The notes: generated from the letters alone by a model not told the origin. A stretch of DNA of 64,000 nucleotides from an uncultured Gammaproteobacteria bacterium (GCA_964590345.1 CAZPVP010000002.1:9945-73944); one strand, 5' to 3'; counted from the stretch's first letter, positions 6,233 through 47,600 are shown. A program made the numbers and translations.

Positions 6233-6248
6233 TAGTTCAAGGAAAAAA

Positions 6249-24246: not shown

Positions 24247-24280
24247 ATTAGCCTTCGCTAACCGTAGTTAGCTTCGGCTA
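24247..24280. promoter_or_regulatory. two tandem TTAGC-N4-GCTAA palindromes (candidate LexA operators)
   Basis: TTAGCCTTCGCTAA and TTAGCTTCGGCTAA are separated by 6 bp. They sit between lexA and the SOS-type rSAM operon, right after a TTGACA-17-TAGTTT plus-strand promoter-like site. Confidence 0.4.
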
Positions 24281-24529
24281 ACAAAGGTTAGTTAATTAGT
24301 ATATTGGGCACAAATTATATTTCAACTTAACATTTGTATGTTTGTATTAAATTTGTATTTTCGTAGGAGTTAATTTATAATAATAAAAAGAGAGACCTTG
24401 TTTATCCAATAAGTGTTTCTCTGTCGCTAAACAGAATTCACCCCAAGCTTCGGGGTGAGTTTTGTTTTAGAAGATGCGTTATCTAAAACTTAACCCGCCC
24501 CAAAAGCAGAGTGTATTTAAAATTAATTA

Positions 24530-25141
24530 TTAAACAACGGCAAATTTGCGAATAACAGCCCGAACAACTCCCTGAACCATCACATTTTTAGCAAAAATAG
24601 GCTTCATGGTAGAATTGGCCGGCTGCAGCCTGACGCGATTGGCTTCTTTGTAAAACTTTTTTAACGTCGCAAAAGTATTATCCAGCAAAGCGACTACCAC
24701 CTGGCCGTTTTGCGGATTTTCATTTTCTTCAACAATCACATAATCGCCATCGTAAATCCCCTCTTCAATCATTGATTCTCCTTTAACTTTTAAAACATAA
24801 GACTTGGCTTCATCTTTAACAAAATCTGCCGGCACAGCAATTTTCTCCTTATTTTCCACGGCCTCAATAGGTTCACCAGCCGTAATTAACCCGGCCAAGC
24901 TCAAAAAAATCGCGTCTGCCCTTTCATTTTCAACAATTTCTATTGATCTGGCTTCATTAGGATCTGTTTTTAAATAACCTTTGTTTTGCAAAGCTTGGAC
25001 ATGCTCACAAACTGTGGCTGTTGAAGACAAGCCAAAATGCTGGCCTATCTCCCGATAACTTGGGGCATAACCATTATCTTCGATAAATTGATTTATAAAA
25101 TCTAATATTTCTTTTTGGCGTTTTGTTAAATTGTCACCCAT
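24530..25141 (-). CDS. lexA: LexA repressor
   Basis: N-terminal wHTH (LTKRQKEILDFI...GYAPSYREIG) and a C-terminal S24 peptidase domain (VKGESMIEEGIYDGDYVIV). Confidence 0.85.
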   Translation of the reverse strand: MGDNLTKRQKEILDFINQFIEDNGYAPSYREIGQHFGLSSTATVCEHVQALQNKGYLKTDPNEARSIEIVENERADAIFLSLAGLITAGEPIEAVENKEKIAVPADFVKDEAKSYVLKVKGESMIEEGIYDGDYVIVEENENPQNGQVVVALLDNTFATLKKFYKEANRVRLQPANSTMKPIFAKNVMVQGVVRAVIRKFAVV

Positions 25142-25542: not shown

Positions 25543-25793
25543 AATTTTAAACTTAGTCCTTAAACCTTAAATCTTAAATCTCCTCACAACCCAAACAAAA
25601 ACCGAATAATCTTATACTTCCATAATAACCGAACAAAATCCGAATGTCAAGGGTGGTTATCCACAACATAGCAAAAACTACTTTTATTTATTGAAAAAAA
25701 ATCCGCCCATTTAAGTGCGGATCATTATCCCCTTTCGCCTACAAAATAAAGGCCTTTGGTGCGTTGAGTATTGTAGTATTGGGACATAATATT

Positions 25794-26143: not shown

Positions 26144-26989
26144 TCATAAATTTTCATAATAATCATATTCTTCTTTTGATATCGGACCTAATTCTTTCAA
26201 TATATCTTTGCCTGCTGCGTTTTGCCACTCAGCCCAGTGGTCTGCTTGAGCATAAGGAGCTGTGCGATCATAAACCAAATAATAAGGAATTATTTCTTTT
26301 TCTTTGGCAATTTTCCATGGGGTATCTTCATGCACATAATCTTCAATCTGCTTGGCATTCATATCTGACAAATTATTTATAACTTTATCAATCAATTTAA
26401 TTTCTTCAGCTTTTTTAAAAATAGACAAATCAGGATCAACCAAAGAAATATATCTTTTTTGTGGCATGCCATGATATGTCTGACTAATAATTTTTAATTC
26501 ATCATTTTTAACCATTTGTTCAATAACCGAATTATAATCTTTTAAGCACGGTACCGGACCGAACTGCAATTTGATATAATTCATGTTTGTTACTGGCTTT
26601 CCCAAAATTTCAAAAGCATCAAAATCAATAAAATAAAGCAGTTTATACAAAACAGTCTCACCCAAATTTGGTTTACCGCCGCACTTTTGTAAAATATACA
26701 AAATCACATTTTTCAATTTATATTGATCAAACTTGAATACTTGACTCTGTTTTTTATTAGCCTTTTTTTCAACTTTATTTTTTTCATCAATCAGCAAATA
26801 ATCAACTGAAGTTCCAAATACTTGGGCAATTTTAGCCAGCTCCAAAGAATCAATACTTCTTTTACTGGCTTCAATTTGCGCTACTGCTACACGAGAAAGG
26901 CCGATTTTTGAGGCTAATTCAGCCTGACTCATATCAAAATCAAGCCTTAATTTTTTAATTTTTTGGGCCAATTTTTTTTGACTTAACAT
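26144..26989 (-). CDS. antitoxin: N-terminal XRE-type HTH fused to a DUF4065/Panacea domain
   Basis: HTH (LAQKIKKLRLDFDMSQAELASKIGLSRVAV). The C-terminal region (LYKLLYFIDFDAFEILGKP) is DUF4065-like. The gene is translationally coupled to the downstream MazF-like ORF. Confidence 0.6.
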   Translation of the reverse strand: MLSQKKLAQKIKKLRLDFDMSQAELASKIGLSRVAVAQIEASKRSIDSLELAKIAQVFGTSVDYLLIDEKNKVEKKANKKQSQVFKFDQYKLKNVILYILQKCGGKPNLGETVLYKLLYFIDFDAFEILGKPVTNMNYIKLQFGPVPCLKDYNSVIEQMVKNDELKIISQTYHGMPQKRYISLVDPDLSIFKKAEEIKLIDKVINNLSDMNAKQIEDYVHEDTPWKIAKEKEIIPYYLVYDRTAPYAQADHWAEWQNAAGKDILKELGPISKEEYDYYENL

Positions 26990-28110: not shown

Positions 28111-29034
28111 TTAAATATCAAATGAGCCCTGCAACATTTTGTCTTGCTCTTTCTTCGGTAAACATTGGAAAAGAGTACCATCCAAAGTAACTTTTTTATA
28201 AATATCCTCAATTATGCTTTTTGCTCCAGTATTTCTAGAAAGAAAAATAAGATAATATTTATTCCTACCCTTATTATAACAAATATCAATTATTTTAGCT
28301 CCAAGTTCGTATTTTTTAGCCACTTTATCATTATAATCAGCAAATATATTCAAATATATTTTTAAATTTTCTTTTTCTTCGCTAGTTAAATTTTTCCAAT
28401 CCTCTCCAAAAAAATCTTGAATTCTTCTTAAATTGCCAATAGCCATTTTTTGTATATCAATAGGTAAATTTTTTTTGCATTTCTTCCCGAAAGCAAGACA
28501 TCTTTCAACTCCCTTACAAATATAATTTATTAAAAATTCCTTTGCGACATTTGGGATATTAAGCATTTTCACTAGCATTTCTCTATAAATATTTATACCA
28601 GCAGGATCTATAAAAAAGAATATAGGAGCTTTACCAGATATAATCGGCAAAATATCATCTATTTTTTTATTTATGTCTCCGTTAAAACATTTAACATAAA
28701 AACCCCTTTTAATATATGGGCTAACAAATTTTTCTAAATCTTGAAAAGCATTTTTATCTTTTTCAACAAAAATACATTTTAAATCTTTATTATATTTTTC
28801 CTTGACCAACTTGGCTATTTCTAAAGCAATTAAGGGCGAACCAAGCACTGAATTTTTAACGCCCTCATTATTATACTTTCCTCTACCTACGAAACAATCA
28901 ATAAAATACATTTCTTGACACCATTTTTGTGCTGCTAATATTTTTGCCCATGCGGATAAATAATCATTTAAAATTTTAAGTTTTGTTTTTGTCTGTGTCT
29001 TATTAGTTATATCCCAAAAATCTTTTTTCTGCAT
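28111..29034 (-). CDS. TcmP-like partner protein (three-Cys-motif partner family resemblance)
   Basis: 307 aa with an N-terminal ...TKLKILNDYLSAWAKILA pattern. The assignment is from recalled family characteristics and needs HMM confirmation. Confidence 0.35.
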   Translation of the reverse strand: MQKKDFWDITNKTQTKTKLKILNDYLSAWAKILAAQKWCQEMYFIDCFVGRGKYNNEGVKNSVLGSPLIALEIAKLVKEKYNKDLKCIFVEKDKNAFQDLEKFVSPYIKRGFYVKCFNGDINKKIDDILPIISGKAPIFFFIDPAGINIYREMLVKMLNIPNVAKEFLINYICKGVERCLAFGKKCKKNLPIDIQKMAIGNLRRIQDFFGEDWKNLTSEEKENLKIYLNIFADYNDKVAKKYELGAKIIDICYNKGRNKYYLIFLSRNTGAKSIIEDIYKKVTLDGTLFQCLPKKEQDKMLQGSFDI

Positions 29035-29088
29035 AAAATATTATTAAATTTAATTTATGCTTTTATTGTGTCCCGAACAAAAACCGAA

Positions 29089-29226
29089 TACAAGCAAACT
29101 TATCCACAGACTCACTCTCCCTCAATTATTTTAACATCCTCTTCCCCCAACCCATACAACTTATACACTGCTTGATCTATCTCATAATCCACTGCCCTTA
29201 TCCTATCCGCATTTTTCTCGCGGGAT
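29089..29226 (-). pseudogene. orphan 3'-terminal fragment of a Type IIG/RM gene
   Basis: It translates to KTPQSREKNADRIRAVDYEIDQAVYKLYGLGEEDVKIIEGE-stop. That is about 75% identical at DNA level to the true C-terminus of the Type IIG gene at 31037-31160 (…KTSESREKNKTKIEAVDYEIDQEVYKLYNLTPEEIKVVEGK-stop). No upstream ORF exists. Confidence 0.55.
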
Positions 29227-30006: not shown

Positions 30007-31050
30007 TTATTTTAATCTTTTTACCCGCCCGAAAATTCTATAACCCGAAACAGTTCCCGTATCTTTTATAAAATTCAGATGATGCCTGATAACAAATTGC
30101 AGATTATCCATGCATTTTATGGCTTGTTTTTTGTAGGCATCTAACTCATAAAGATCGTGCTTAGGATGAACCAAATTGCTTGCAGTGGTTGAGATTTCGT
30201 TTACCTTTTTTGCCGCAATTTTACTTATTGGATACTTACCTCGAAATAGAGAATAGCTACGACAAGTTTCCGCCAAATGCTCTATGCTTTTTAGTTTTTT
30301 GTTATCTTTAGCTTGCTTGTAGATATCAAATCCCCTCCCAACTTTTAGGAGAATTCGTATAAGTGCCTGCTCTGTGGCTGTACGACAAACAACAATAGAG
30401 GAATAGTAATACCCGAGGACATAAAGTTCCTGTGCATGGGAGAAAAGATCGAAATAATTACCATCGTAGACCATCACACCTCGATACCTTTGTGACACTG
30501 TTATGTGTCTTTTCCACATTGCCGGTAATTCTTTCTCAAGCCCCGTTCTCCATCCCTGCAGGAATTCACTTTTTTCTTGCCTACGCATAGTCAATGGTAG
30601 ATAACCGCCACCACGAACTTTATGCGCAGTAGTGATTTTAAATTTATTTTCAAGGTCTTTTATTTTTTTAAAATCAGCATGCCAAATCCACCAATCTTTA
30701 TTAAAACGTACTACTAAAATTGTAGCCGATTTCTTACCCAGAGTTGGATCATGCCACTTAACATTTTTAATTTCGTGCAAATCTACATTGATGGGTTTGC
30801 CAGCATTATTCGGATTAAGCTTCCTGTTTTTAAACTCAAGCATTACCTGTACCGCGTTGTCGAGAAAAATACGATGACTTCCGTCGGATAAAATTTCAAT
30901 TCCGGCGACACTAAAATCTTTCAGACCCAGTCGTTTTAATTCAGGCTCAATATATTCTTTTATGGCTTTATTGACTGCCTGGCCAAAGCTTTGATTCTTT
31001 TTTACGTTTTCGTCTAGAATAAAGATTGCCATATTTTTATTTCCCCTCAA
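30007..31050 (-). CDS. hypothetical protein, compositionally distinct (higher GC)
   Basis: 347 aa. Its start overlaps the Type IIG stop by 14 bp. No recognisable motif. Confidence 0.45.
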   Translation of the reverse strand: MRGNKNMAIFILDENVKKNQSFGQAVNKAIKEYIEPELKRLGLKDFSVAGIEILSDGSHRIFLDNAVQVMLEFKNRKLNPNNAGKPINVDLHEIKNVKWHDPTLGKKSATILVVRFNKDWWIWHADFKKIKDLENKFKITTAHKVRGGGYLPLTMRRQEKSEFLQGWRTGLEKELPAMWKRHITVSQRYRGVMVYDGNYFDLFSHAQELYVLGYYYSSIVVCRTATEQALIRILLKVGRGFDIYKQAKDNKKLKSIEHLAETCRSYSLFRGKYPISKIAAKKVNEISTTASNLVHPKHDLYELDAYKKQAIKCMDNLQFVIRHHLNFIKDTGTVSGYRIFGRVKRLK

Positions 31051-34000
31051 CCACCTTAATCTCCTCAGGCGTCAAATTATACAACTTATAAACCTCCTGA
31101 TCAATTTCATAATCCACTGCCTCAATCTTTGTCTTGTTTTTCTCACGGGATTCAGAGGTTTTATTTAATTTAAGCATTTCATCAACAAGTTTGATTATAT
31201 TTTTACTTATCTTTTCATCAGGATCCTTGATAATTGGTAATTCCTTAAGGTATTCTATTGTTATTTGTGTTGTCAATTTCATACCTAGATTATAGGTGTA
31301 TTCATAATAAAAATTCATTAATTCTGAATTAAGAATCGCTAAAATTAGTTTTGGATTATAATCTTTTATACCAAAAATTGAATATACTGTGTTAAAAGCC
31401 AAAACATCTTTATCTTGTGTGACAAATGTACCCCCGGGTCTAGTCGCTATCCTTTTAATAAATATTCTATCTTTATTAAATGCCTCTCTTTTATAATCAA
31501 CACCTTTTAGAGACTCCTGAATATAATAAAAATCATTAATATAATATTTTTTCAATTCTTTACCCGAAATACATTTTATTTTATATTTATCTGTTTCTAT
31601 ATCAGAACTAATACATATACCTTTTTTATTTTTAATTAATCTCTTGCAATTCTTGCAATAATTACTAGCTTTTAGATTATAGTACTTCTCGCTCAATTCA
31701 TTATATACTCCACAACTATCACATTTTATCAAATTTGTTTTTTGACCTAATTCTATACCTCGTTTAATATCTGCTATTTCTTTAAGTTTTACACTAACCT
31801 TGTTAATTGTATTTAATAAATCTTGTTTCTCTTTGGTAATATCAAAAGAAAAAGCTTGAACTGGATTTTTTGAAAAAATATTCTGATTAATTGCGTGACT
31901 GGATACTAAATTACCATCAAAAATCTTTTCAATTATTGTCAGTGCTTTGGATTTAGATTTTGAGATTATGGGGCAGATACAATCAGATGCTACCCCAGGA
32001 AATTTACCGAAATCAATAAATTTAAATAATTGCCAATCATCTAAAATTTTACTTCTTATTATTTTATAAGAAGTATTTTTTATAAAAACTTTTGGAATTA
32101 ATATCCCCATTAATCCATTTGGATTTGTAATATTCACTGATTCTAAAACAAACGGTGCGAAAAGGTTTAAATTTTTAGTATCGATAATATAAGCATTGTT
32201 AATATAATCGGTAATTTCAATAGGCATTTTAGAACTCCATGGTGGATTACCGATCACCGCATCAAATCCGCCGTCCTTAAAAATCTCGCAAAAAGCCACT
32301 GAATAATTAAAAGGCTTTATTTTTTCCAAGTTTTTAAAATATTGTTTCAGGCCATCGTTTAACTTGCCATTAATCAATGTTTCAAATTTTTTAATTTCAA
32401 CCAGTAAATCTTTTTTCTCATCATTGGCTTCAGCTTGATAAAATTTTTCTTTCAGTTCGGTTAATTTAGCAATTTCTGTTTTATAATCATCAAACAAATT
32501 AAGATTCTGTTCTTTTTCTTTAAGCTTTTCTCCGCCAATTAAAGAATTACCGCAACGGATATTTAAATTTAAATTAGGCAAAAGATGCTTACCTTTTAAT
32601 TCTGCAGGGTTAACGCCTTCCAAAGCTTTGATCATTAAATTAAGCTTGGTAATTTCAATCGCTTTAGGGTCAAGATCAACACCAAAAAGATTTTTTTGCA
32701 AAACTTTTTTCCTAAAATCAAAACTCAAAAGCCCGCCTTCTTTGGAAACTTCCAAATATTTATTATAAATCTCTTCAAAAGCGCGAATTAAAAAAGAACC
32801 AGAACCACATGCCGGATCCAAAACTTTTATTTTTTCTACATCTTCAACTGTTTTGCATTTTTTTAATAATTCCCCAACAGTATTTTTAACTATGTAATCA
32901 ACAATATAAGCGGGCGTATAATAAATGCCTTGGGATTTACGTTTTGATTTTTGCTTTTGCTTTAGAGTGTCTTCCCTCTTAATATTGCCTTTGGCAATTT
33001 CACCTAAATAATTCTCATAAACTTCGCCGATTATATGGACACTTAATTTGCTAAAATCAATTTTTTTAAGCTCATTAATAATCTTTATAATTATTTCATC
33101 ATTAATTTTCAATTCATCAGCATCATTAGGTTCAAAAAGTTCAGTGTTGAATTTTTCGTCCATTGCTCTAAAAATTGACTTTAATTCTTCGTATTTTAAC
33201 TGCTTGGACTGCAAGACTGAATCCAAATAATCCTGTGAAATAATATTCCTGTCGCTGCATAAATCAATAAAAATCAAACGATCAATAATTTTCTGGGACA
33301 TTAATTCTGAATCATACTTAGGATAATTTTTAATAATAAAAGCACGCAATTTGGCGCGCCAATTTTTAATTTTATTAAAAAAATCTTTTTTAATCTTATC
33401 CTGTTCAAGATCCAATTGTTCAGGATAATAAATCGGATCAGAATCAATAATGCCGTTTTTTCTAGTTAATTCTGATTTTGATAATTGGCTTAAAAAATTC
33501 AAGCCTTCATCTGACAATAAATCAATATAATATCTTTTATCAGCATTATCCCATAATAAATCATGAAACGCATATTTTCTTTCTTTATATAAACGTCCGT
33601 GCTGGACACTGTATAAACGCCACTCAATAAAATTGGTTAAAACTCCCCAATACAAACCTTCACCGTGGCAATAATTAAATAATTGCTGGGTAAACGGCTT
33701 GTTGCCATAAGAGCCGTCAAGTTTGTCTTTACTAGAAGCATCTTTAGATTCAATCACTAAAAGCTTAGAGCCGGTATCGGATTTTAAAATAATATCAGGA
33801 TTTTTACCGGTTTTAACATCCTGTGCAGTATCCAAAACCCAATTAGAACTATCCCAGCCTAATATTTTAAGCAATTCAATAGTAAAACTGGTTTGAATGT
33901 CTTGTTCGCGTTTTGACCAGCCGTCCTGCGTCTTAAATTTATCAACCAATGCCTGAATCTGCTTTTTTAATTTCGCCTGTTCCAATTCAAGATTTGGCGT

Positions 34001-34057
34001 GTTTAATATTATTTTCTTTTTATCCATAAAGATAGTTGTAATAACCACTATTGACAA
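31037..34057 (-). CDS. Type IIG restriction-modification enzyme (MmeI/Eco57I-like: PD-ExK nuclease plus gamma-class N6-adenine MTase plus TRD)
   Basis: PD...ExK nuclease motif at the N-terminus (NPDIILKSDTGSKLLVIESKD). MTase motif I VLDPACGSGSFL and motif IV VIGNPPWSS. A Zn-ribbon CDSCG...CKNC lies in the C-terminal target-recognition region. 1006 aa. Confidence 0.85.
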   Translation of the reverse strand: MSIVVITTIFMDKKKIILNTPNLELEQAKLKKQIQALVDKFKTQDGWSKREQDIQTSFTIELLKILGWDSSNWVLDTAQDVKTGKNPDIILKSDTGSKLLVIESKDASSKDKLDGSYGNKPFTQQLFNYCHGEGLYWGVLTNFIEWRLYSVQHGRLYKERKYAFHDLLWDNADKRYYIDLLSDEGLNFLSQLSKSELTRKNGIIDSDPIYYPEQLDLEQDKIKKDFFNKIKNWRAKLRAFIIKNYPKYDSELMSQKIIDRLIFIDLCSDRNIISQDYLDSVLQSKQLKYEELKSIFRAMDEKFNTELFEPNDADELKINDEIIIKIINELKKIDFSKLSVHIIGEVYENYLGEIAKGNIKREDTLKQKQKSKRKSQGIYYTPAYIVDYIVKNTVGELLKKCKTVEDVEKIKVLDPACGSGSFLIRAFEEIYNKYLEVSKEGGLLSFDFRKKVLQKNLFGVDLDPKAIEITKLNLMIKALEGVNPAELKGKHLLPNLNLNIRCGNSLIGGEKLKEKEQNLNLFDDYKTEIAKLTELKEKFYQAEANDEKKDLLVEIKKFETLINGKLNDGLKQYFKNLEKIKPFNYSVAFCEIFKDGGFDAVIGNPPWSSKMPIEITDYINNAYIIDTKNLNLFAPFVLESVNITNPNGLMGILIPKVFIKNTSYKIIRSKILDDWQLFKFIDFGKFPGVASDCICPIISKSKSKALTIIEKIFDGNLVSSHAINQNIFSKNPVQAFSFDITKEKQDLLNTINKVSVKLKEIADIKRGIELGQKTNLIKCDSCGVYNELSEKYYNLKASNYCKNCKRLIKNKKGICISSDIETDKYKIKCISGKELKKYYINDFYYIQESLKGVDYKREAFNKDRIFIKRIATRPGGTFVTQDKDVLAFNTVYSIFGIKDYNPKLILAILNSELMNFYYEYTYNLGMKLTTQITIEYLKELPIIKDPDEKISKNIIKLVDEMLKLNKTSESREKNKTKIEAVDYEIDQEVYKLYNLTPEEIKVVEGK

Positions 34058-39045: not shown

Positions 39046-40374
39046 TTATCTTTTCTCAATATCCTCTTCAACTTTTCTCTTTGCTTCTTCTAATAGTTCT
39101 TTGGCTTCCCAACGTAATTTAAATGATTCCCCTACCATTTTAGCGATTTTTTGTTGAGTTTTGAGAGGTAAAATTGGAATCAAAGTATTTTCAACCTGAT
39201 CCGGCCGCCAGTGATTAATAATTGACCCGCCTGCATCTCGATCAATTTGCATCTGGCAAATCAAAGAATTTAAAACCAAAGTTAAATATTGAGGATTTAA
39301 ATTTTTATCTTTAACCTTTAATCGCAAAATTCCGCCGGAAATAATGCCTTCCTTATCTTCATTCAAATAAATTGCAATGCCAGGTGTAGCATCTTTGCTT
39401 AATAAAATTTCGCCTTTTTGCGGCTGATATTTATCTTTTAATTCGCCGTATAATTTATCACTTAAAAATTGCTGATTATTATCATTAATACCAAATTTTG
39501 ACATATTGGAAACACGAATAAAAGGCTTGCCTTCTTCCTGATAAACATCGCTCCCGGACTCAATCCCTTTTAGAGATTCAACTAAATTACCCAACTTTTC
39601 TTTTTTAACTTTAATTTTACTTAAAATTTTCTCAAACTTAGGCTGGAAATATTCAGCATCAATCCGCCCTGCTTGTTGGCAGTCTTTTAAAGTAGTGGCA
39701 TAAGCCAAATCATCTTCAAGCTTTAAATCTTTAATACTCAATTCTTCAAGCAATAAAGCTTCGGCTTGAGAGTAAAAGAATTTGGATTTTGCTATTTTCT
39801 CAAAAACTTCTTTTACTATTTTTTTGATGTTTTGTTCATTTTTAACATAAAAAGGCAAATTCATTATATCTTCTTCCGTAACTGCCGGATACATACTAGC
39901 TGATGTCAATCTATCTAAAAGTGTTATTACATGATTTGTTTTTAAATAAGCAAATAAATACTCTGAAGAAACTTTTTGTGGCCATATATCACAAAATCCA
40001 CTTGAAGCGACAAATCCATCATCCTCTTTTTGTATTAAAGAAACAGCATTTCTATTAGGTCTAACAGTTGAAACTAACACATCGCCACTCTTAACAACTT
40101 TTTGCGCTCTATCTGGGGCGTCTTCTCCCATTATTTGTTTAGCATCAAAAGTCCCGTCATTTAAATTAATTTCAGAAATTTCAATATAATTAAAAATTTC
40201 TCCCTTTTTGGGTTTGAATCTTCTAGTAACATTTTTAGTATAATTATTTAATTTCTTGTCGGTTAATTTATTTAATTTTTTAATCAAATCTAAATACTCC
40301 GGCTGATAATATTCAGCATCTAGTCTTAAAGCACCTTCAAGATAATTTTTTTTAATTATTGAATAAGTTGACAT
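39046..40374 (-). CDS. hsdS: restriction-modification specificity (S) subunit (HsdS-like / Type IIB B-subunit-like)
   Basis: 442 aa with two target-recognition domains and conserved central and terminal repeats (LDAEYYQPEY... IDAEYFQPKF). Confidence 0.85.
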   Translation of the reverse strand: MSTYSIIKKNYLEGALRLDAEYYQPEYLDLIKKLNKLTDKKLNNYTKNVTRRFKPKKGEIFNYIEISEINLNDGTFDAKQIMGEDAPDRAQKVVKSGDVLVSTVRPNRNAVSLIQKEDDGFVASSGFCDIWPQKVSSEYLFAYLKTNHVITLLDRLTSASMYPAVTEEDIMNLPFYVKNEQNIKKIVKEVFEKIAKSKFFYSQAEALLLEELSIKDLKLEDDLAYATTLKDCQQAGRIDAEYFQPKFEKILSKIKVKKEKLGNLVESLKGIESGSDVYQEEGKPFIRVSNMSKFGINDNNQQFLSDKLYGELKDKYQPQKGEILLSKDATPGIAIYLNEDKEGIISGGILRLKVKDKNLNPQYLTLVLNSLICQMQIDRDAGGSIINHWRPDQVENTLIPILPLKTQQKIAKMVGESFKLRWEAKELLEEAKRKVEEDIEKR

Positions 40375-40463: not shown

Positions 40464-40973
40464 TTATGGATATATTTTATAAATATTTTTATTATATACG
40501 AGATAAATTCCTAAAAATCCAGTTCCTTTAAAAAATTTTTTTCTTAAATCCTTTAAATCTTTTATTTCTTTACTAGATAATTTTCCAACTATCCACCAAC
40601 CATCTAAAAGTAAAATTAAGTCTCTTTTTAATTCAATTGAATATTTTTCTGATTTTTGTTTAATAGGTTCAATGATCCCTTTCTCAATCCGAGGATCTGG
40701 TTCTGTTCTATTATAAACCCTTAAAACTTCCCCTTTTGTTGCGAATTTTTCTCGCGCATCATAATCTGCAACGGTAATTTGCATCTTTAAAGTGTGTTCC
40801 GGATTAGATTTTTTATGAGCTAAAGCATCGATACCTTCATCTATTGATGGGTGATAAGGTTCACAGTAATCTTCGTTATGATTTTTATTAATATGTTCAA
40901 TAAAAATATTCGCAATTTTCAATTCATCATCTATATTTCCCAGTTGGGGTTTTTTGATTATTGAGTAGGTCAT
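40464..40973 (-). CDS. hypothetical protein whose first 8 codons duplicate the hsdS start region
   Basis: 169 aa. The sequence ATGACCTACTCAATAATCAAAAAA occurs again, with about 33 bp of upstream flank, at 40424-40450. Confidence 0.4.
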   Translation of the reverse strand: MTYSIIKKPQLGNIDDELKIANIFIEHINKNHNEDYCEPYHPSIDEGIDALAHKKSNPEHTLKMQITVADYDAREKFATKGEVLRVYNRTEPDPRIEKGIIEPIKQKSEKYSIELKRDLILLLDGWWIVGKLSSKEIKDLKDLRKKFFKGTGFLGIYLVYNKNIYKIYP

Positions 40974-41782
40974 AATTGTTTAGCATTATCTTTTGATTGA
41001 TCTTTTATCTTCGTTAATTTTTTATGTTGTTCCTGAAAATCATCACTTTCAATAATTTCTTGTAAAAGCGCTGTTGAATGAACTAAGGCTATCCCTGTAT
41101 TTTCTGTAAAAACTGATCTTATCTCACCAGTTTGTACACTAATTGCCTCATCTTTGTAAGGTACATATGCGCCTATAATTCCTGATAATTTTATTTCAAC
41201 TGGACCTCCTATTTGAACAGAATTATCTTTTATTTTAATTGGTGTTGGTAATAAAAAAACAGGACTTCCGCTATTGCCAGGAAAAGCGAACCCATCCATA
41301 AAAAATGTTTTATCATAATTAATTCTAGAAACTACTCCCTTTCGAATAATCGGATTAATAGCGGCATCTGTTTTTAATTCATTAATTCCTGGCTGATAAG
41401 ACAGGAAAAATAAATCGACTAATTCTTGAATATCAGAAATTTTTCTAATGAATAGATCATTGGGGATAAATTTAGATTTATCACTAGGAGCTAAAGGAAA
41501 TGGTAATAAGGCAATGTCCACTTTATTATCTCCATGTTTTTTCCATGACCATCCTTGCCTTAATATTTCAGTTATTGCTTTATAATTTATGCCAAAATTA
41601 TTAGAATTTAAAAAAATATACATTTTTTCATAATTTTTTTCTACTACATGTTTAGCTGTAGCTAAATAAAAGACATCGTCTACTTGTATTAAGAATCCAG
41701 TTCCAGAAAAAACAGGCTCACTATTATTCATGTATCCTAAAAAAATAGTACTTTCTTTAATTTGAGATATTAATTGTTTCAT
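40970..41782 (-). CDS. trypsin-like (S1/Trypsin_2) serine peptidase
   Basis: Catalytic-triad candidates: H in LATAKHVV, D in VDIALL, S in FPGNSGSPVF (GDSGGP-like). Confidence 0.65.
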   Translation of the reverse strand: MKQLISQIKESTIFLGYMNNSEPVFSGTGFLIQVDDVFYLATAKHVVEKNYEKMYIFLNSNNFGINYKAITEILRQGWSWKKHGDNKVDIALLPFPLAPSDKSKFIPNDLFIRKISDIQELVDLFFLSYQPGINELKTDAAINPIIRKGVVSRINYDKTFFMDGFAFPGNSGSPVFLLPTPIKIKDNSVQIGGPVEIKLSGIIGAYVPYKDEAISVQTGEIRSVFTENTGIALVHSTALLQEIIESDDFQEQHKKLTKIKDQSKDNAKQL

Positions 41783-41795
41783 AATATGTAATTTA

Positions 41796-42350
41796 TTAAT
41801 TAAACTTCTTTTTTAAGTCTAAAATTAAATTTTCACAAGCAAAATCTATCTGTCTAAATTCGGCAATATAGCCTTCTTTATAATTTTTAGAAGTACTAAT
41901 TTCATCAAGTAAAGTATCTAATCCTTTTAAATTATCATTTCCTTTTGATATTTCTTTACATTTCTCAATCGCCTTTTTAGTTAAAATTATAAAATTATCT
42001 TTATGATTATAATATTGAGATATATGCCCAATCCTATTATGTCGAATTAGTAAAAAATCTTTTGAATATTCATTTAATTTATCTATTTCTGTTTTTTTCA
42101 AACAATCAAATTCATATAAAGACCATGTTCCGTTCCTTGAATCAAAAAATGTAGATAAAATCAAACAAATAGTCCTGGTTAAGCTATCCAATACCATTTG
42201 AAAAAAATGATTATAATTATTATTGTTAATATTTACATTTACTGCAATTTTATCATAAATAACCAATATAGAATTTAATCTACTTAATTCTTTATATAAA
42301 TACCCCCAAATTTCATATTCAGTATTATTTATTTTCTTGCCTTTTAGCAT
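41796..42350 (-). CDS. hypothetical protein with RHNRIGH (Rx4-6H, HEPN-like) motif
   Basis: 184 aa. It contains a single Rx5H motif. This is a weak assignment. Confidence 0.3.
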   Translation of the reverse strand: MLKGKKINNTEYEIWGYLYKELSRLNSILVIYDKIAVNVNINNNNYNHFFQMVLDSLTRTICLILSTFFDSRNGTWSLYEFDCLKKTEIDKLNEYSKDFLLIRHNRIGHISQYYNHKDNFIILTKKAIEKCKEISKGNDNLKGLDTLLDEISTSKNYKEGYIAEFRQIDFACENLILDLKKKFN

Positions 42351-42479
42351 AGAATATGATTAATTTACTTAATTTTGATTATCCACAGATATATTGACAA
42401 AATTTGACAATATATGAAAAATTGGTATAATGACAATGTAGTGCAAGCTACCCTCATCTATAGGATAATAGATATGTGT

Positions 42480-43136
42480 TTATACCTCCGCCTTAACGGG
42501 CGGAGTGTTTTGATTCTCAAATTTTAAAAATTGCGCTAAAGTTTCAGCCGGAATAAACTTATCTGCAACTGTTTCAAGTTCAGTACTCATTCTATTTCGG
42601 GTACTAACCACTATTATTTTTTTCTTTTTAGTCTTTAAATATGCAAGTAGTCCCCCAAAATCACTATCTCCTGAAAACAGCATTACAGTATCATATTTAT
42701 GAATTTTAACTAGCATATCTTGAGTTATTTCTACATCAAAATTGCATTTAGGAAATTTGCCTAAAAATTTTCCATCTTCATCATAATGAGGCACCATTTT
42801 AATTTCCTTGGTCCTTTTGGTAAAACCTGCTTTTTCTGCTTTTTCAACTCTATAAAGAGATTTTCCATGTTTTACATTTAATTCGTGATCTTTGGATAAA
42901 TTAGGATATTTTGCATAATGGCCATAATAGAAAAATTTTTTTGAGGGTTTAACCCATTCGCACAAGTTAGCTAGCTTCTCAATATCTATTTCCCAACAAA
43001 GTTTGTATTTATTTTCCTCCGGCCAAAATTCTTTTGCCCAAGGCCTAACATTTCCAAAATCTACGAAAACATAAATATTTTCAAATTCACCGGGTTTGAA
43101 AAAATAATAATTGCATTTAAAATCGTTTATTTCCAT
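42480..43136 (-). CDS. NYN/LabA-like PIN-fold ribonuclease domain protein
   Basis: VFVDFGNV ... MLFSGDSDFGGLLAYLK ... KIIVVS pattern of the NYN domain. Confidence 0.65.
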   Translation of the reverse strand: MEINDFKCNYYFFKPGEFENIYVFVDFGNVRPWAKEFWPEENKYKLCWEIDIEKLANLCEWVKPSKKFFYYGHYAKYPNLSKDHELNVKHGKSLYRVEKAEKAGFTKRTKEIKMVPHYDEDGKFLGKFPKCNFDVEITQDMLVKIHKYDTVMLFSGDSDFGGLLAYLKTKKKKIIVVSTRNRMSTELETVADKFIPAETLAQFLKFENQNTPPVKAEV

Positions 43137-43240
43137 GCAAATAAAATTTGTGATTACTGATTAAATTTACTTAATTTTGCTTATCCACACTGGATATTGA
43201 CAAAACATGTGAATTTGCTATAATAATTACAGAATATTAG

Positions 43241-43282
43241 AAAAAGGCGTCGGCTCTATTGGCCGATGGCCTTTTTCATTTT
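43241..43282 (-). terminator. terminator hairpin at the 3' end of the DUF3800 gene
   Basis: On the minus strand, AAAAAGGCCATCGGC-loop-GCCGACGCCTTTTT followed by CTAATATTCT. Confidence 0.45.
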
Positions 43283-44029
43283 AGCTAAAAAACCATCCGT
43301 CTTATGATGGTGAATATTAAAAGCGAAATTTCTAAAATCCTTAGTTAAAATGTTTACTCCCAAATTTTCTTTGATTTTTTTGACAAATTCCTGCTTTACA
43401 GATGATGGAGCAGAAATTATGCCATCTTTCAATAGTAATTCGTAATTAATTGCACCAGTTATAAGATCGGTTAATTGCAATAAATCATTTGTTCGTGAAT
43501 CAAGACGACAAACACCGGCGATTGCCAAACGATCAAACTTCTTATTTAAATTATTTTTAATATTGACTTCAAATTTACTCCTTTTGGGTGTAATTAAATT
43601 ATCGGCTAAAACAATTAAAACTTCGTTTTTTCTTAAATTTCCTTCCAAAAGATGCTGGGCAACTCTTTCATAAGCTAAAAAAGGATCACTATGAAATTCA
43701 TTTCTGAAATATTTGCTCCTTTTATCTATTGAATATGAGGTATAAAAAATACTTCTGGTACTAAATAAAGCTTCCAGAGCCAACAAATAAACATTTAATT
43801 TAGCTTTATTTAAATTATTAAATTTTAATTCCCACCAAAAATGATTGCATTCTCTAATATAACGCATTTTTTGCTGTAAATAATAAGGCTGGGAACATTT
43901 AATCATGCCTACTGTGAAATATGGCTGGGTTTCAATAGATAATGCTCCTGATTCATCTAAAAAGCAAAATGGGGTCCAGATATTTTTATAATCTCCTAAT
44001 GTTAAATTGTGATTATCATTATTTTCCAT
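43256..44029 (-). CDS. DUF3800 family protein (intact copy)
   Basis: N-terminal FCFLDESG signature. 257 aa. Confidence 0.65.
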   Translation of the reverse strand: MENNDNHNLTLGDYKNIWTPFCFLDESGALSIETQPYFTVGMIKCSQPYYLQQKMRYIRECNHFWWELKFNNLNKAKLNVYLLALEALFSTRSIFYTSYSIDKRSKYFRNEFHSDPFLAYERVAQHLLEGNLRKNEVLIVLADNLITPKRSKFEVNIKNNLNKKFDRLAIAGVCRLDSRTNDLLQLTDLITGAINYELLLKDGIISAPSSVKQEFVKKIKENLGVNILTKDFRNFAFNIHHHKTDGFLAKMKKAIGQ

Positions 44030-44036
44030 ATTAAAA

Positions 44037-45980
44037 TTAAAGAAAATTTAAATTATCCTTTTTGGCAAATTTTAAAAACTCATCAGCGATTTCATCTAAA
44101 TCATGATCAATTATTTTTTTACCTTTTAAATTAACCATTTTATTGCCTTCTTCATCTTTTTTATAAACATACTCACCGGAATTATCCTTACCTGATTTTT
44201 GGGATGTTGCCATGAAAATATTATAATCTTTTTTCGGTTTTTCATTTTCTAACCATTTTTGCAAAAACAAAACAGAAGTCTTAGTACCTGTATGAGGTTT
44301 AAATGTATTAACCTGCAAGCCAACTACTGCTAATATTCTAGCTTTATCCATTAAAAATTCCCTGACTTGCTGCATATTAGTATTATTAAAAACGCCTTGC
44401 GGCAAAACAATGGCTAAACGGCCACCTGGTTTAATAATATTTAATGACCGTTCAATAAATAAAATATGGCGTTCCATTTTATTTTTTAATTTGCCTTTAT
44501 CATTTTTCGCCAATTCATATTTATTTAATAAAGATTTTTCAATTATCTCACCGGCAAAAGGCGGATTGGACAATAAAATATCAAAATTAAAATATTTAAA
44601 ATTATCTTCATTATCCTTGTCTTTGGTATAATCATTGAATTTATAAAGCCTTTGCTGTAATTCTGCCCTGGCTCTTAATTTTTCACTTTCATTACCCATC
44701 CATTCTTGGGGATTTAAAGAATTTAATTTAAAAATATGAGAGCGACCATCGCCAGCTATTAGCATTAAAGCACGGGAAATTTTGACTGATTTTTCATCAA
44801 AATCAATGCCATATAAATAACGCTGAGCATATTCTCTCATTAATTCCTTATCCATGCTTAAAAATTCTTTTTTAACATGATTCATCGTATGGATTAAAAA
44901 TCCACCAGATCCACAAGCCGGATCAATCACATATTCTGTGGTTTGCGGATTTAACATTTTAACTGCCATATCAATAACATGACGCGGTGTAAAATATTGT
45001 CCCTTTTTCCCCTTAGCAATATCCGGTAATAAATATTCAAAAGCAGAGTCAATTACATCAAGATTGGCATCAAGTAATTTTATTTTTTCAAATTCACCAA
45101 CACAAACCGACAAGTGTCCCGGATTTAAATCAATTTTTTCATATTCATTAAAAATACCAGGCCATTCTTTTTTCGCACCATCAAAAAGCTGGCTAATATG
45201 ATCATAAGTTAATTGTGGATCTTTATATTGCCTAAATAATAATTCTTTATCTTTACGCTTTTTGGCCTCTTTCTCATCATATAATTTAGCGTAAATTAAT
45301 TTAAAAATCTCATTAAAACTATCAGCACCTGATCCAGCTAAAACCAATTCTTCTAATACGCGAATAATACTAACTAAATCAAAGTCAACCTCTAAATCAC
45401 TAATCGTTAATTTTTCATCCAAAACATCTTCAATATCCTGGTCAACTCTGGGAATATCACGCAAAGTGCTCTCAAATTGATCCGGATATTTACGATATAA
45501 AATAACTTTCTCATCGCCATTAGACCAAACGCCGATTGGCGCACCTTTAGAATTAACATAAGTTTTTAATTGTTCTAAACCTTTTTTCTCATCTGGCTTT
45601 TTGAGTTCAAAAATAATTAGGGCTGTTTCTTTATCCTTATGGAAAACTATAATATCAGCCGCTTTGACATGCACTTCCCCGCCAAAATGAATATTTTGTT
45701 CAATACCGATCCGGTCTAAAGGATAACCATATATTTTGATCAATTTATAAATCCATAATTGCCGAATGATTTCTTCCGGCTTAGATATTTTTTTTTCTTC
45801 GTTCAAAATTAAAATATCCTGATTGCGCACAGGATCTTTAACATAATATTTGCCGTCTTTGGCAACGATATCTAAAACTTCAGCAATTTTTATTCCTTTA
45901 AATTCCTTAAGGCCATATTCCAATTCAGGATCTTTAAAAATTTTAGTAATTACTTGATGCGCTAATTCTTTTTTAAGCAT
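44037..45980 (-). CDS. fused PD-ExK nuclease (HsdR_N-like) plus N6-adenine DNA methyltransferase; BcgI-A-like Type IIB/IIG RM subunit
   Basis: N-terminal AADIIVF...IIFELKKPD (D-x-ExK). MTase motif I VIDPACGSGGFL and motif IV LLSNPPFAG. At 647 aa its size matches the BcgI A subunit. The cognate S subunit lies 3.7 kb downstream at 39046-40374. Confidence 0.75.
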   Translation of the reverse strand: MLKKELAHQVITKIFKDPELEYGLKEFKGIKIAEVLDIVAKDGKYYVKDPVRNQDILILNEEKKISKPEEIIRQLWIYKLIKIYGYPLDRIGIEQNIHFGGEVHVKAADIIVFHKDKETALIIFELKKPDEKKGLEQLKTYVNSKGAPIGVWSNGDEKVILYRKYPDQFESTLRDIPRVDQDIEDVLDEKLTISDLEVDFDLVSIIRVLEELVLAGSGADSFNEIFKLIYAKLYDEKEAKKRKDKELLFRQYKDPQLTYDHISQLFDGAKKEWPGIFNEYEKIDLNPGHLSVCVGEFEKIKLLDANLDVIDSAFEYLLPDIAKGKKGQYFTPRHVIDMAVKMLNPQTTEYVIDPACGSGGFLIHTMNHVKKEFLSMDKELMREYAQRYLYGIDFDEKSVKISRALMLIAGDGRSHIFKLNSLNPQEWMGNESEKLRARAELQQRLYKFNDYTKDKDNEDNFKYFNFDILLSNPPFAGEIIEKSLLNKYELAKNDKGKLKNKMERHILFIERSLNIIKPGGRLAIVLPQGVFNNTNMQQVREFLMDKARILAVVGLQVNTFKPHTGTKTSVLFLQKWLENEKPKKDYNIFMATSQKSGKDNSGEYVYKKDEEGNKMVNLKGKKIIDHDLDEIADEFLKFAKKDNLNFL

Positions 45981-45981
45981 A

Positions 45982-46599
45982 TTATCTTGATAAATTTTTA
46001 ATTATTTTTCCTTTAATGTAGGTTTCCTCGCAAACAGGGATGATATCATATTTCGGATTTTCTGGCTGAAAAAATGTTCTGTTGCCTTTAAATTTTAAAC
46101 GTTTAACAGTAAAACCAATATCCATGACGTGAGCAAAAACAATATCATTATCTTTAAATTCATTGCCTTTTTGAACAAGCAAAAGGTCTCCGTCATGAAT
46201 ACCAGCTCCGATCATTGAATCGCCAAAAGCTTTAATAATAGTCAATTTGTCTGAAAATTCATGAACTTCAGAAGACAATTCTATCCAATGATCTTTTTGC
46301 TCAAAAACTTCTACTAAAGCTCCGCAAGGGGCTTCTCCCTCCATTTTTATTACTGGTTTAACATTTAGTGCGTCAAATCCTTTTTTTAAAATTTGAATTG
46401 ACCTAGCCACACCTTCATTTCTTTTGATAAATTTGCCATTTTCTAAAATTTCTAATAAATCTAAAACTGCTTGATTAGATTTTACATCTAACTCTCTTTT
46501 CATATCTTCAAAAGAAGGTCCAAAACCTGAAGATTTCAGCCAATCATAAATAATCTGAAGCAATTGCTTTTGCCTTTTTGTTATTGCATGGGGTTTCAT
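45982..46599 (-). CDS. second LexA-like repressor (wHTH plus S24 peptidase)
   Basis: TKRQKQLLQIIYDW...GFGPSFEDM at the N-terminus and AFGDSMIGAGIHDGDLLLV in the C-terminal region. Its stop lies 1 bp before the ATG of the RM nuclease-MTase gene. Confidence 0.75.
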   Translation of the reverse strand: MKPHAITKRQKQLLQIIYDWLKSSGFGPSFEDMKRELDVKSNQAVLDLLEILENGKFIKRNEGVARSIQILKKGFDALNVKPVIKMEGEAPCGALVEVFEQKDHWIELSSEVHEFSDKLTIIKAFGDSMIGAGIHDGDLLLVQKGNEFKDNDIVFAHVMDIGFTVKRLKFKGNRTFFQPENPKYDIIPVCEETYIKGKIIKNLSR

Positions 46600-46613
46600 A
46601 TGTCTATATTTTA

Positions 46614-46631
46614 ACTGACTATTTAGTCAGT
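46614..46631. promoter_or_regulatory. palindromic operator candidate ACTGACTA-TT-TAGTCAGT in the 5' UTR of the LexA-like gene
   Basis: Perfect 8-bp arms, 15-32 nt upstream of the start codon. Adjacent to TGTGGATAA (minus-strand sense). Confidence 0.45.
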
Positions 46632-46706
46632 AGTCAAATTATTTATCCACAAAAAAACATCCCCTATAGAAATGTTTTTTTACATAAAAAATATTTTATA
46701 AATTCC

Positions 46707-47600
46707 TTATTTATTTTCTTTCAATTTATCTAAAAATTTTATCACATCCAAATCTGGATAAACACTTAAACGCTTTAATTCAAACAAATCCTCTGGATCC
46801 TGCCAAGCATCCTGATCAAAAGTCAATCCGGCTTTATAACCGACTGCTTTGGCTAAAGCTTTAATTTCCTCGTTATATAAGCCAAATGGATAACAAATAA
46901 CTTCTGTTTCCCTGGCCAATAATTCTTTTAAATCGTCGCGGCTTTTTTCTAATTCGTACAAACGTTCATCAGCCGGCACTTGAGTCAATTTAGGATGCCA
47001 GACAGTATGGGAGCCGATTTCAACCAAACCGCTTTTATCCAATTCCACTACCTGCTCTTTGCTTAAATAATTTGGCCCGCCTACGCCAGTCATAATATAA
47101 ACTGATGATTTAACTTTGTATTTCTGCAAAATCGGCCAGGCATTAGTATAAAAATTCTCATTGCCGTCATCAAAAGTAATGGCTATAATATTATTTTTTG
47201 GCAAAACGCCTTGCGATAAATAATCAACTATCTCACTGACAAAAACCGGCTCATAATTATTGTTAATTATTTCTTGGATAATTTGTTCAAAATTGGCTGG
47301 CTCAATATAATAACTTTGAGTAATTTTACTCGCCGTAGCCGGTGCCTGATCAATATGATGGAAATTTAAAATCGGCACAAAAACTTTTTCGTCAGCTTTA
47401 ATCTCTACCAAATCAATTTTTTGCTGTTTCTTGTTTTCCTCTAAAAAATCGCCTTTATATTCGCCTGGCGCGGACCTTAAACTAACCACAAATAAATCAG
47501 CTAGAATAACAATAACGACAACTAAAATAACAATTATTGCGTCAAACAAATGATGGTGCTTTTCTTCGAGTTTTTTCTTTATCTGCTCTAAATCAGGCAT
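46707..47600 (-). CDS. polysaccharide deacetylase (NodB/CE4 family) with N-terminal TM anchor
   Basis: IAITFDDGNENFYTNAWPIL ... GSHTVWHP NodB motifs. Confidence 0.75.
   Translation of the reverse strand: MPDLEQIKKKLEEKHHHLFDAIIVILVVVIVILADLFVVSLRSAPGEYKGDFLEENKKQQKIDLVEIKADEKVFVPILNFHHIDQAPATASKITQSYYIEPANFEQIIQEIINNNYEPVFVSEIVDYLSQGVLPKNNIIAITFDDGNENFYTNAWPILQKYKVKSSVYIMTGVGGPNYLSKEQVVELDKSGLVEIGSHTVWHPKLTQVPADERLYELEKSRDDLKELLARETEVICYPFGLYNEEIKALAKAVGYKAGLTFDQDAWQDPEDLFELKRLSVYPDLDVIKFLDKLKENK

Follow-up and report, generated by a model that had tools for sequence, protein, structure and literature searches.

In a 64,000-nucleotide (nt) stretch of DNA from an uncultured Gammaproteobacteria bacterium (GCA_964590345.1, CAZPVP010000002.1:9945-73944; this whole stretch is called the window, and positions are counted from its first letter), a gene for a LexA-like protein stands at the head of a restriction-modification (RM) operon. 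It is judged moderately probable that this protein is a dedicated LexA paralogue which controls the transcription of the operon it heads, and that its self-cleavage relieves the repression. The features of the gene, its promoter and the first enzyme of the operon are as follows.

45982..46599, minus strand: LexA-like repressor gene, an open reading frame (ORF) of 205 amino acids (aa) with Pfam and NCBIfam matches
46390-46599, minus strand: N-terminal winged helix-turn-helix (HTH) of the repressor, residues 1-70
46438-46476, minus strand: recognition helix, residues 42-54
46321-46326, minus strand: predicted cleavage site, Cys92-Gly93
46216-46218 and 46102-46104, minus strand: Ser128 and Lys166, the S24 dyad
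46608..46613, minus strand: -10 hexamer TAAAAT, with the ATG 8 nt after it
46614..46631: perfect 18-bp palindrome ACTGACTA-TT-TAGTCAGT, the predicted operator, filling the whole -35/-10 spacer
46632..46637, minus strand: -35 hexamer TTGACT (promoter scan 10/12, 18-nt spacer); TTGACA is conserved in the family loci
46643..46651: 9-mer with the DnaA box consensus, TTATCCACA on the plus strand and TGTGGATAA on the gene strand, 5 nt upstream of the -35
44037..45980, minus strand: RM polypeptide of 647 aa, with an N-terminal PD-(D/E)xK nuclease (HSDR_N_2, 68.7 bits) and an N6_Mtase domain (133 bits)

The LexA-like protein and its family

Judged by its matches and predicted fold, the protein is a genuine LexA paralogue and is cleavage-competent by its residues, cleavage itself being predicted. 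Pfam places LexA_DNA_bind (PF01726, 40.6 bits) at residues 5-66 and Peptidase_S24 (PF00717, 71.3 bits) at residues 88-200, and the lexA model TIGR00498 is barely passed (111.2 bits, cut-off 110.95). A PDB sequence search returned full-length LexA (3k2z with 2e-14, 1jhf, 3jso) and then the UmuD and lambda CI C-terminal domains. The AlphaFold 2 model, made with 35 homologues in the alignment, has a mean predicted local distance difference test score (pLDDT) of 88 and contains helices at residues 8-24, 30-37 and 42-54 plus a wing. Its top Foldseek matches are full-length LexA structures (3k2z, 3jso, 8trg), and its S24 domain reaches target-normalised TM-scores of about 0.8 against LexA structures, including RecA-bound LexA. 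An earlier sequence-only reading of the window had called the gene a second LexA paralogue (winged HTH and S24, GDSM...DGD), and the Pfam, TIGR00498, PDB and Foldseek matches bear this out. PADLOC had no model matching the protein.

The motifs GDSM (Ser128), DGD and TVKRL (Lys166) are present. In an alignment with E. coli LexA, Ser128 and Lys166 align with Ser119 and Lys156, and Cys92-Gly93 aligns with Ala84-Gly85. The S24 Ser/Lys dyad expected of an autocleaving regulator is thus intact on alignment, and it is kept in 119/119 homologues. The glycine of the scissile bond is kept in 118/119, and the residues at P1 are 106 Ala, 11 Cys (this protein included) and 2 Gly. UmuD is cleaved at a Cys-Gly bond, so the Cys at P1 is no argument against cleavage here.

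Among 5.8 billion proteins searched there were 401 matches; the family figures are drawn from the best 120 cluster representatives, which are 41-83% identical to the LexA-like protein and much closer to it than is the canonical LexA of the window. The nearest relatives, where named, are annotated 'repressor LexA' and come from metagenome-assembled genomes of Patescibacteria, also called the Candidate Phyla Radiation (CPR). Complete CPR genomes, for example CP179891.1 and CP011210.1, have the gene as well. A family hidden Markov model (HMM) scores 120/120 of the listed homologue clusters and all RM-linked loci at 267 bits or more. Other LexA proteins (62 loci from many phyla) score at most 198 bits, with the canonical LexA of the window at 126 and E. 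coli LexA at 110. The HMM was built from proteins similar to the query and the score gap is therefore partly built in, but genomic context, which is independent of the HMM, follows the gap exactly. By score and context the RM-linked homologues appear to form a discrete clade of at least 120 protein clusters.

Gene order was compared in 24 genome loci (6 neighbourhoods and 18 loci from species-representative genomes), all selected by protein similarity. An RM methyltransferase lies directly downstream in 23/24 of them, at a gap of -19 to +42 nt from the repressor stop. Among about 57 control lexA loci none has an RM methyltransferase in the first downstream positions. In the window the repressor stop TAA (45982-45984) is followed by a single base (45981) and then by the ATG of the RM gene (45978-45980). 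That the repressor ends 1 bp before the ATG of the nuclease-methyltransferase gene, as had been claimed, can be read directly from the sequence and makes for tight coupling.

The partners are diverse. Most loci, like this one, have an HSDR_N_2/N6_Mtase protein with an HsdS; the others have a plain N6_Mtase with HsdS, an N6_N4_Mtase with HinfI, an Eco57I-like protein with Tsp45I, an NmeDI-type pair, or a putative endonuclease with an N6_N4_Mtase. At least six RM architectures are found behind the LexA-like gene, and many unrelated RM partners are as expected for a portable control module. The flanking genes are different at every locus, as expected for a mobile cassette. In metagenome loci with enough sequence (from the pattern scan described below) the next gene is an RM methyltransferase or, in L119, a putative endonuclease preceding one; D12/Dam-like methyltransferase partners are new in this set. 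A phage origin was considered and rejected: the viral contigs of IMG/VR hold no close relative, and the best full-length match is 30% identical.

In at least seven contigs (L028 at 5995-7431, L096, L104, L109, L116, L133 and L143) the LexA-like protein is fused in frame to an N6_N4 methyltransferase. The L028 fusion reads LexA_DNA_bind-S24-N6_N4_Mtase and is followed by an HNH nuclease. Two sizes occur, about 478 aa (then an HNH nuclease) and about 616 aa (then a SfiI/BglI-like nuclease). The fusions keep the HTH, the S24 domain and intact Ala-Gly/Ser/Lys residues; their self-cleavage would part the DNA-binding domain from an S24-methyltransferase fragment.

Promoter, operator and recognition helix

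On the gene strand the promoter reads TGTGGATAA-ATAAT-TTGACT-ACTGACTAAATAGTCAGT-TAAAAT-ATAGACAT-ATG, and an independent promoter scan chose identical -35 and -10 hexamers. The upstream alignment gives the family layout as (G)TTATCCACA, about 9-10 nt, TTGACA, an 18-bp palindrome, TAT(A/T)AT, 6-10 nt and ATG. The palindrome, with the family consensus CCCGACYWWWWRGTCGGG (in search form CYGACYWWWWRGTCRG), lies in the promoter spacer of 62 distinct promoters. The copy at 46614..46631 is single in the window even at up to 3 mismatches (0.07 chance matches expected), and the arrangement is not one of paired operators (OL/OR): there is one spacer-confined palindrome, with no second copy nearby.

Since the palindrome fills the -35/-10 spacer, it is an operator inside the core promoter and not an element of the 5' untranslated region. 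The sequence-only reading was right about the perfect palindrome (46614-46631) and wrong about its place, as it had put it in the 5' untranslated region, whereas the ATG follows 8 nt past the -10. The spacer is the classic site for a repressor that excludes RNA polymerase. The proposal that the palindrome is the repressor's own operator is supported by comparative genomics (62 distinct promoters have it at this position) and by the covariation of a helix residue with operator bases, and the palindrome is accordingly described here as the conserved predicted operator of the LexA-like protein. The second element said to adjoin it does exist, as TGTGGATAA at 46643-46651, but it is a separate DnaA-box-like site and no part of the operator.

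Exactly 6 nt separate the -10 from the start codon in 34/63 family promoters, and no more than 10 nt do so in 57/63. In four the gap is 16 nt or more, and all four have a GGAGG Shine-Dalgarno sequence. This either/or of a short gap or a GGAGG is the pattern expected if the short-gap mRNAs are leaderless, and the repressor-RM mRNA is probably leaderless. Two features lie upstream of the promoter.

46650..46682, minus strand: terminator-like hairpin with a U-run (RNA fold -13.2 kcal/mol, z = -3.4 against shuffles)
46707..47600: upstream polysaccharide deacetylase gene (Pfam Polysacc_deac_1)

The hairpin probably terminates the preceding deacetylase gene, which would make the LexA-like promoter the start of its own transcription unit.

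The recognition helix carries SNQ(S/A/T)V in the RM-linked family, KSKNAV in the canonical-type LexA of CPR and SSTATV in the window's own canonical LexA. Operator positions 3 and 16 covary with residue 44 of the helix: symmetric CTGAC...GTCAG operators accompany 6/6 proteins with Ala44, compared with 2/56 with Ser or Thr44. By C-terminal-domain identity the six Ala44 proteins do not form a single tight clade. This covariation is the best in-silico support for the predicted direct binding of the operator, although phylogenetic inertia may contribute to it.

A pattern scan of 241 million metagenome records with TTATCCACA-N5-12-TTGAC-N3-4-GAC-N6-GTC returned 69 matches. Of these, 47 run directly into an ORF matching the family HMM (E 1e-28 to 1e-106), which supports a private circuit. 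Most of the remainder are without the extended palindrome and the -10 and, read by eye, resemble chance matches or contig ends. Because box, -35 and GAC/GTC core were already written into the pattern, the independent evidence in this set consists of the outer palindrome, the -10, the ATG distance and the gene content. Within the window and the 24 loci the operator is found only before the LexA-like gene. Three near-matches (window 63086, L020 9178, L027 233) were considered as second copies and rejected as chance matches, all being inside coding sequence; the one in L020 encodes 'ADLIVGAIN' of a DUF3800-like protein. A DNA-repair regulon sharing the operator was not found in the window, the 24 loci or the metagenome pattern matches. 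The suggestion of a private regulon, made from the sequence alone, has thus gained ground: the palindrome has no further copy in the window, the near-matches in the family loci are coding, most pattern matches precede a LexA-like gene, and the operator is unlike both candidate boxes of the canonical lexA described below.

The 9-mer upstream of the -35, TTATCCACA, is the DnaA box consensus (PMC8203912). Base composition predicts about 0.8 perfect copies in the window, and there are 5. All of them are intergenic and precede genes on the minus strand: the NYN and HEPN-like genes, the gene at 28111-29034, the LexA-like gene and the operon of the canonical lexA. In the 24 family loci the 120 nt preceding the LexA-like start hold 11 perfect copies in all, where about 0.03 would be expected. 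In a further 7/24 the best match is a one-mismatch copy, mostly at the same position; in L026 the copy is inverted and about 28 nt from the -35. The position is nearly fixed at 9-10 nt upstream of the -35, or 5-6 nt when the box is inverted.

Among the 62 control lexA loci the box is found in four CPR loci only (L029, L030, L032, L033), and it is absent from 57 non-CPR lexA promoters. These four have a perfect TTATCCACA/TGTGGATAA box, a LexA box GTGAACGNNNGTWTAC (the Gram-positive-type GAAC) in the spacer and an ATG a few nt past the -10. They share with the RM-linked family the layout of -35, spacer operator, -10 and leaderless-type ATG. This common box and layout are most simply read as the trace of a duplication, in which a CPR lexA was copied along with its promoter to give the RM-linked paralogue and the copies later drifted apart in helix and operator. 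Neither a dnaA gene nor an origin was found in the sequences examined. In E. coli, uvrB and recN are co-regulated by DnaA and LexA (review PMC8203912), so a DnaA box beside a LexA-type operator has precedent. The likeness lies in the consensus box beside such an operator; the difference is that here the spacing of the 9-mer is nearly fixed and conserved in CPR lexA-type promoters, both canonical-type and RM-linked, and that DnaA binding is putative.

The rest of the operon and the canonical lexA

The following genes lie downstream of the RM gene or bear on the comparison with canonical LexA.

43256..44029, minus strand: DUF3800 protein (PADLOC candidate PDC-M04A), 7 nt after the RM gene
40464..43136, minus strand: cargo genes between the RM gene and the specificity subunit, assigned by library matches, comprising the next four
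42480-43136, minus strand: NYN nuclease
41796-42350, minus strand: HEPN/AbiU2-like protein
40970-41782, minus strand: Trypsin_2 peptidase
40464-40973, minus strand: unknown 169-aa protein
39046..40374, minus strand: HsdS-type specificity subunit, 442 aa (Pfam Methylase_S; PADLOC Specificity_I, 102 bits)
24530..25141, minus strand: canonical lexA (TIGR00498, 209.4 bits)

The RM polypeptide also matches PADLOC MTase_I (PDLC03034, 606 bits), and its best PDB match is the type IIB enzyme RM.BsaXI (8w0p, 2e-28). A type IIB architecture fits, with nuclease and N6-adenine methyltransferase in one 647-aa protein and a separate S subunit, and a Pfam scan found no HsdR-type helicase gene in the operon. 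The polypeptide presumably needs the HsdS-type subunit, which is found downstream of the RM gene in most related loci. The DUF3800 gene is probably the last of the repressor-controlled unit. Membership of the MADS system was considered and rejected, with MAD2 at 324.7 bits against a cut-off of 720 (methyltransferase) and MAD5 at 139.6 against 400 (S subunit).

A repeated intergenic promoter-like element of about 50 nt, TTTTGTCAATAT..TGTGGATAA.CAAAATTAAGTAAATT.AATCA, is present in one copy each before the NYN and HEPN/AbiU2-like genes (42351-42479, 43137-43255). Each of these two genes may thus be a cargo cassette with a promoter of its own that was inserted behind the RM gene and ahead of the S subunit. 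Defence-type cargo recurs in unrelated loci at the slot that separates the nuclease-methyltransferase gene from hsdS (40464-44029 in the window), a site of repeated insertion: DUF3800 homologues occupy it in L020, L022 and L138, NYN homologues in L015, L025, L126 and L140, and in other loci it holds one to three different small genes. Rfam RNA elements had no matches in 38-48 kb, and base composition (the window is 32% G+C) gave no signal of a foreign island. A second, unrelated RM-type gene (31037-34057, minus strand) encodes a 1006-aa Eco57I/MmeI-like methyltransferase with TaqI_C, looks like type IIG/IIL and is followed by two ORFs of unknown function.

The canonical LexA of the window is 28% identical to the LexA-like protein, and the two genes are about 21 kb apart. 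The canonical gene is followed on the same strand, after a gap of 479 nt, by radical-SAM (TIGR03916) and DUF4130 genes, a usual SOS-type cassette. The promoter of its operon (a four-helix-bundle gene, then lexA; 25591-25665, minus strand) reads TGTGGATAA-6 nt-TTGACA-[TTCGGATTTTGTTCGGT]-TATTAT, with a second copy, TTCGG-N6-TTTGG, about 20 nt downstream. The same arrangement, TGTGGATAA-6 nt-[TTCGGTTTTTGTTCGG] (29073-29108, minus strand), precedes the gene at 28111-29034, and a radical-SAM gene comes after that one. A gene at 26144-26989 (minus strand), located between the operon of the canonical lexA and the radical-SAM cluster, encodes a 281-aa protein in which an Xre-type HTH is fused to a SocA/Panacea antitoxin domain.

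The sequence-only reading had proposed TTAGC-N4-GCTAA as the canonical LexA box. Two perfect copies, TTAGCCTTCGCTAA and TTAGCTTCGGCTAA, are indeed found near lexA (24248-24281, 20 nt apart, flanked by ACTAATTAAC repeats), and they differ from the operator of the LexA-like gene as stated. Their place, however, is not the lexA promoter but the 479 nt downstream of lexA that separate it from the radical-SAM gene, and they could be an operator or small RNA hairpins. The TTCGG-N6-TTCGG direct repeat sits in the spacer of the canonical lexA promoter, and its period of 11 nt is also that of the alphaproteobacterial GTTC-N7-GTTC box; the repeat appears to be the likelier SOS box candidate.

Proposed control of the operon and its meaning

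If the LexA-like protein is the dedicated controller of its operon, the circuit may work as follows. A dimer on the spacer palindrome would block RNA polymerase and keep the repressor-RM(-DUF3800) transcript low and self-limiting, as promoter anatomy and comparative genomics suggest. The RM gene would be translated by termination-reinitiation 1 nt past the repressor stop, which would keep repressor and RM enzyme in a fixed ratio. From the biochemistry of LexA, UmuD and lambda CI, the S24 dyad and Cys92-Gly93 would make the repressor self-cleavable. A signal, most probably the filament of RecA on single-stranded DNA (ssDNA) formed upon DNA damage or phage DNA processing, would part the DNA-binding domain from the dimerisation domain. 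Cleavage would derepress the operon, and fresh repressor would reset the promoter. The DnaA-box-like site upstream of the -35 is probably a second input, for replication status or an activator. A positive feedback is plausible: ends and ssDNA produced by basal restriction of incoming DNA would give rise to RecA filaments, these would bring about cleavage of the repressor, and the levels of methyltransferase and nuclease would climb until the promoter is reset. RecA-ssDNA as the trigger, proposed by analogy, is the weakest step and has roughly even chances of being right.

A wider version joins these elements. In it the RM systems of CPR/Patescibacteria would carry a portable 'mini-SOS': lexA was duplicated with its promoter, RecA filaments on damaged or invading DNA induce restriction, the DnaA box couples the operon to replication status, and the fusions release their methyltransferase by cleavage. 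As a whole this is tentative and somewhat doubtful. If true, it would be a fourth, unrecognised class of RM control besides C proteins, autoregulation by the HTH of methyltransferases, and antisense RNA.

Several points weigh against control by a dedicated, self-cleaving repressor. DNA binding, self-cleavage and RecA dependence are all predictions, and what a single spacer operator predicts is repression alone. One family locus (L013) has a Bro-N gene downstream and no RM gene. The promoters of L006, L009, L014, L022 and L026 keep the right half-site TAGTCGGG with a conserved CCAGAAK as the left half, giving an asymmetric operator, and L012 and L017 have no recognisable operator. The metagenome set was preselected by the pattern of box, -35 and GAC-N6-GTC, the residue-44 covariation is possibly partly phylogenetic, and the co-occurrence of the paralogue with a canonical lexA refers to this window alone. 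It is not obvious what a cell would gain from more restriction nuclease while its DNA is damaged, and the type I systems of E. coli do the opposite under damage (restriction alleviation).

The best surviving alternative is a homeostat without a damage signal, similar to a C protein: the repressor would autoregulate, allow a burst of enzyme on host entry and then shut the operon off, with the S24 domain serving dimerisation and a slow, RecA-independent cleavage setting the half-life. C proteins (C.PvuII, C.AhdI, C.Esp1396I) are likewise small regulators that head RM operons, have a palindrome in their own promoter and are combined with many unrelated RM enzymes, and C-gene mRNAs are leaderless. 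The position at the head of the operon, the probable leaderless mRNA and the own-promoter palindrome thus parallel both C proteins and HTH-bearing methyltransferases. The methyltransferase fusions resemble self-regulating methyltransferases of the SsoII type, and the mobility implied by the changing flanks would suit such a homeostat. The protein itself is not a C protein, as Xre-type HTH_3 (PF01381) had no match in it and paired operators are lacking. C proteins have an Xre-type HTH, about 80-100 aa, no peptidase domain and two adjacent operators that activate and then repress, whereas here a LexA-type winged HTH is joined to S24 and a single spacer operator predicts pure repression with an off switch based on cleavage. 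Conservation of Ser and Lys in 119/119 and of Gly in 118/119, with Ala or Cys at P1, argues that regulated cleavage and not dimerisation alone is under selection, and the promoter design common to canonical-type CPR lexA argues for a related input. A homeostat of this kind is considered rather unlikely.

Under a second alternative the trigger would be specific to phage (a phage protein or an infection cue) instead of RecA, and the RM enzyme and abortive-infection-like cargo would be on only upon infection. The defence-type cargo (DUF3800/PDC-M04A, NYN, HEPN-like and trypsin-like peptidase) favours it, as does the Bro-N gene of L013, a domain typical of phage antirepressors. The concept is known: WYL-domain BrxR/CapW and CapH-CapP are repressors which head defence operons and are relieved by a DNA-damage or infection cue. 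Those families are unrelated, and here sensor, protease and DNA binding would be in one polypeptide and a classical RM system is controlled. In the loci examined no conserved partner protease or antirepressor gene stands beside the repressor, the complete self-cleavage apparatus is kept, and IMG/VR viral contigs hold no close relatives, so that a phage-specific trigger is improbable.

That the protein is the general SOS LexA with the RM operon as an ordinary regulon member, or a leftover prophage CI-type repressor beside RM genes by chance, is very improbable: the bare pass of TIGR00498 and the 'repressor LexA' annotation of relatives are in its favour, but a better lexA (209 bits) with radical-SAM and DUF4130 genes lies 21 kb away, the operator was found only before LexA-like genes in the sets scanned, the RM linkage persists in 23/24 loci among different flanks, phage genes are not adjacent, and close relatives are absent from the IMG/VR viral contigs.

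The preferred reading, a dedicated and cleavable LexA paralogue, places the protein between known systems. It is like canonical LexA (1JHF, 3JSO, 3K2Z) in two-domain architecture, fold, Ser/Lys dyad, cleavage Gly and own-promoter operator, and canonical-type lexA promoters of CPR share the box, -35, spacer operator, -10 and leaderless ATG. It differs in clade, recognition helix and operator, in the fusion of some members to methyltransferases, and in that its only target found is its own RM operon and not DNA-repair genes. An S24 self-cleavage module and a private operator over accessory genes are likewise features of the self-cleaving repressors of mobile elements (lambda CI, SXT SetR; UmuD for the cleavage chemistry); here the genes controlled are those of RM enzymes and not lysogeny, transfer or translesion synthesis functions, the DNA-binding domain is of LexA type and not lambda type, and unlike lambda CI-type repressors the family was not found on viral contigs.

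The known means of RM control, to our knowledge, are small Xre-type C proteins, the methyltransferase acting on its own genes, and antisense RNA. A self-cleaving controller of the LexA family, conserved in 120 or more protein clusters and beside six or more RM architectures, would bring in a mode that responds to a signal. A 2013 review of RM regulation mentions LexA for toxin-antitoxin systems only (PMC3874152), and a 2026 preprint on methyltransferases in 12,552 CPR genomes has no mention of LexA or repressors. No published account of LexA-type RM controllers was found, with the limit that a mention in the 2017 work on the Patescibacteria SOS network (Sanchez-Osuna et al., Environ Microbiol 19:3465) is not excluded.

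The public 'LexA' annotation of these proteins hides a paralogy and would mislead reconstructions of SOS regulons. The family also offers natural, apparently orthogonal repressor/operator pairs with a readable code (Ala44-CTGAC, Ser44-CCGAC), and the DnaA-box-like element common to lexA-type promoters in CPR opens a separate route into how transcription is controlled in this poorly understood group. CPR bacteria are reported to be mostly without CRISPR and rich in RM systems, so the gating of RM matters for how they resist phages and take up DNA from their hosts. The results suggest that DNA restriction in CPR/Patescibacteria is switched by an SOS-like signal, and they raise the testable question of whether restriction in these bacteria is induced by DNA damage or infection.

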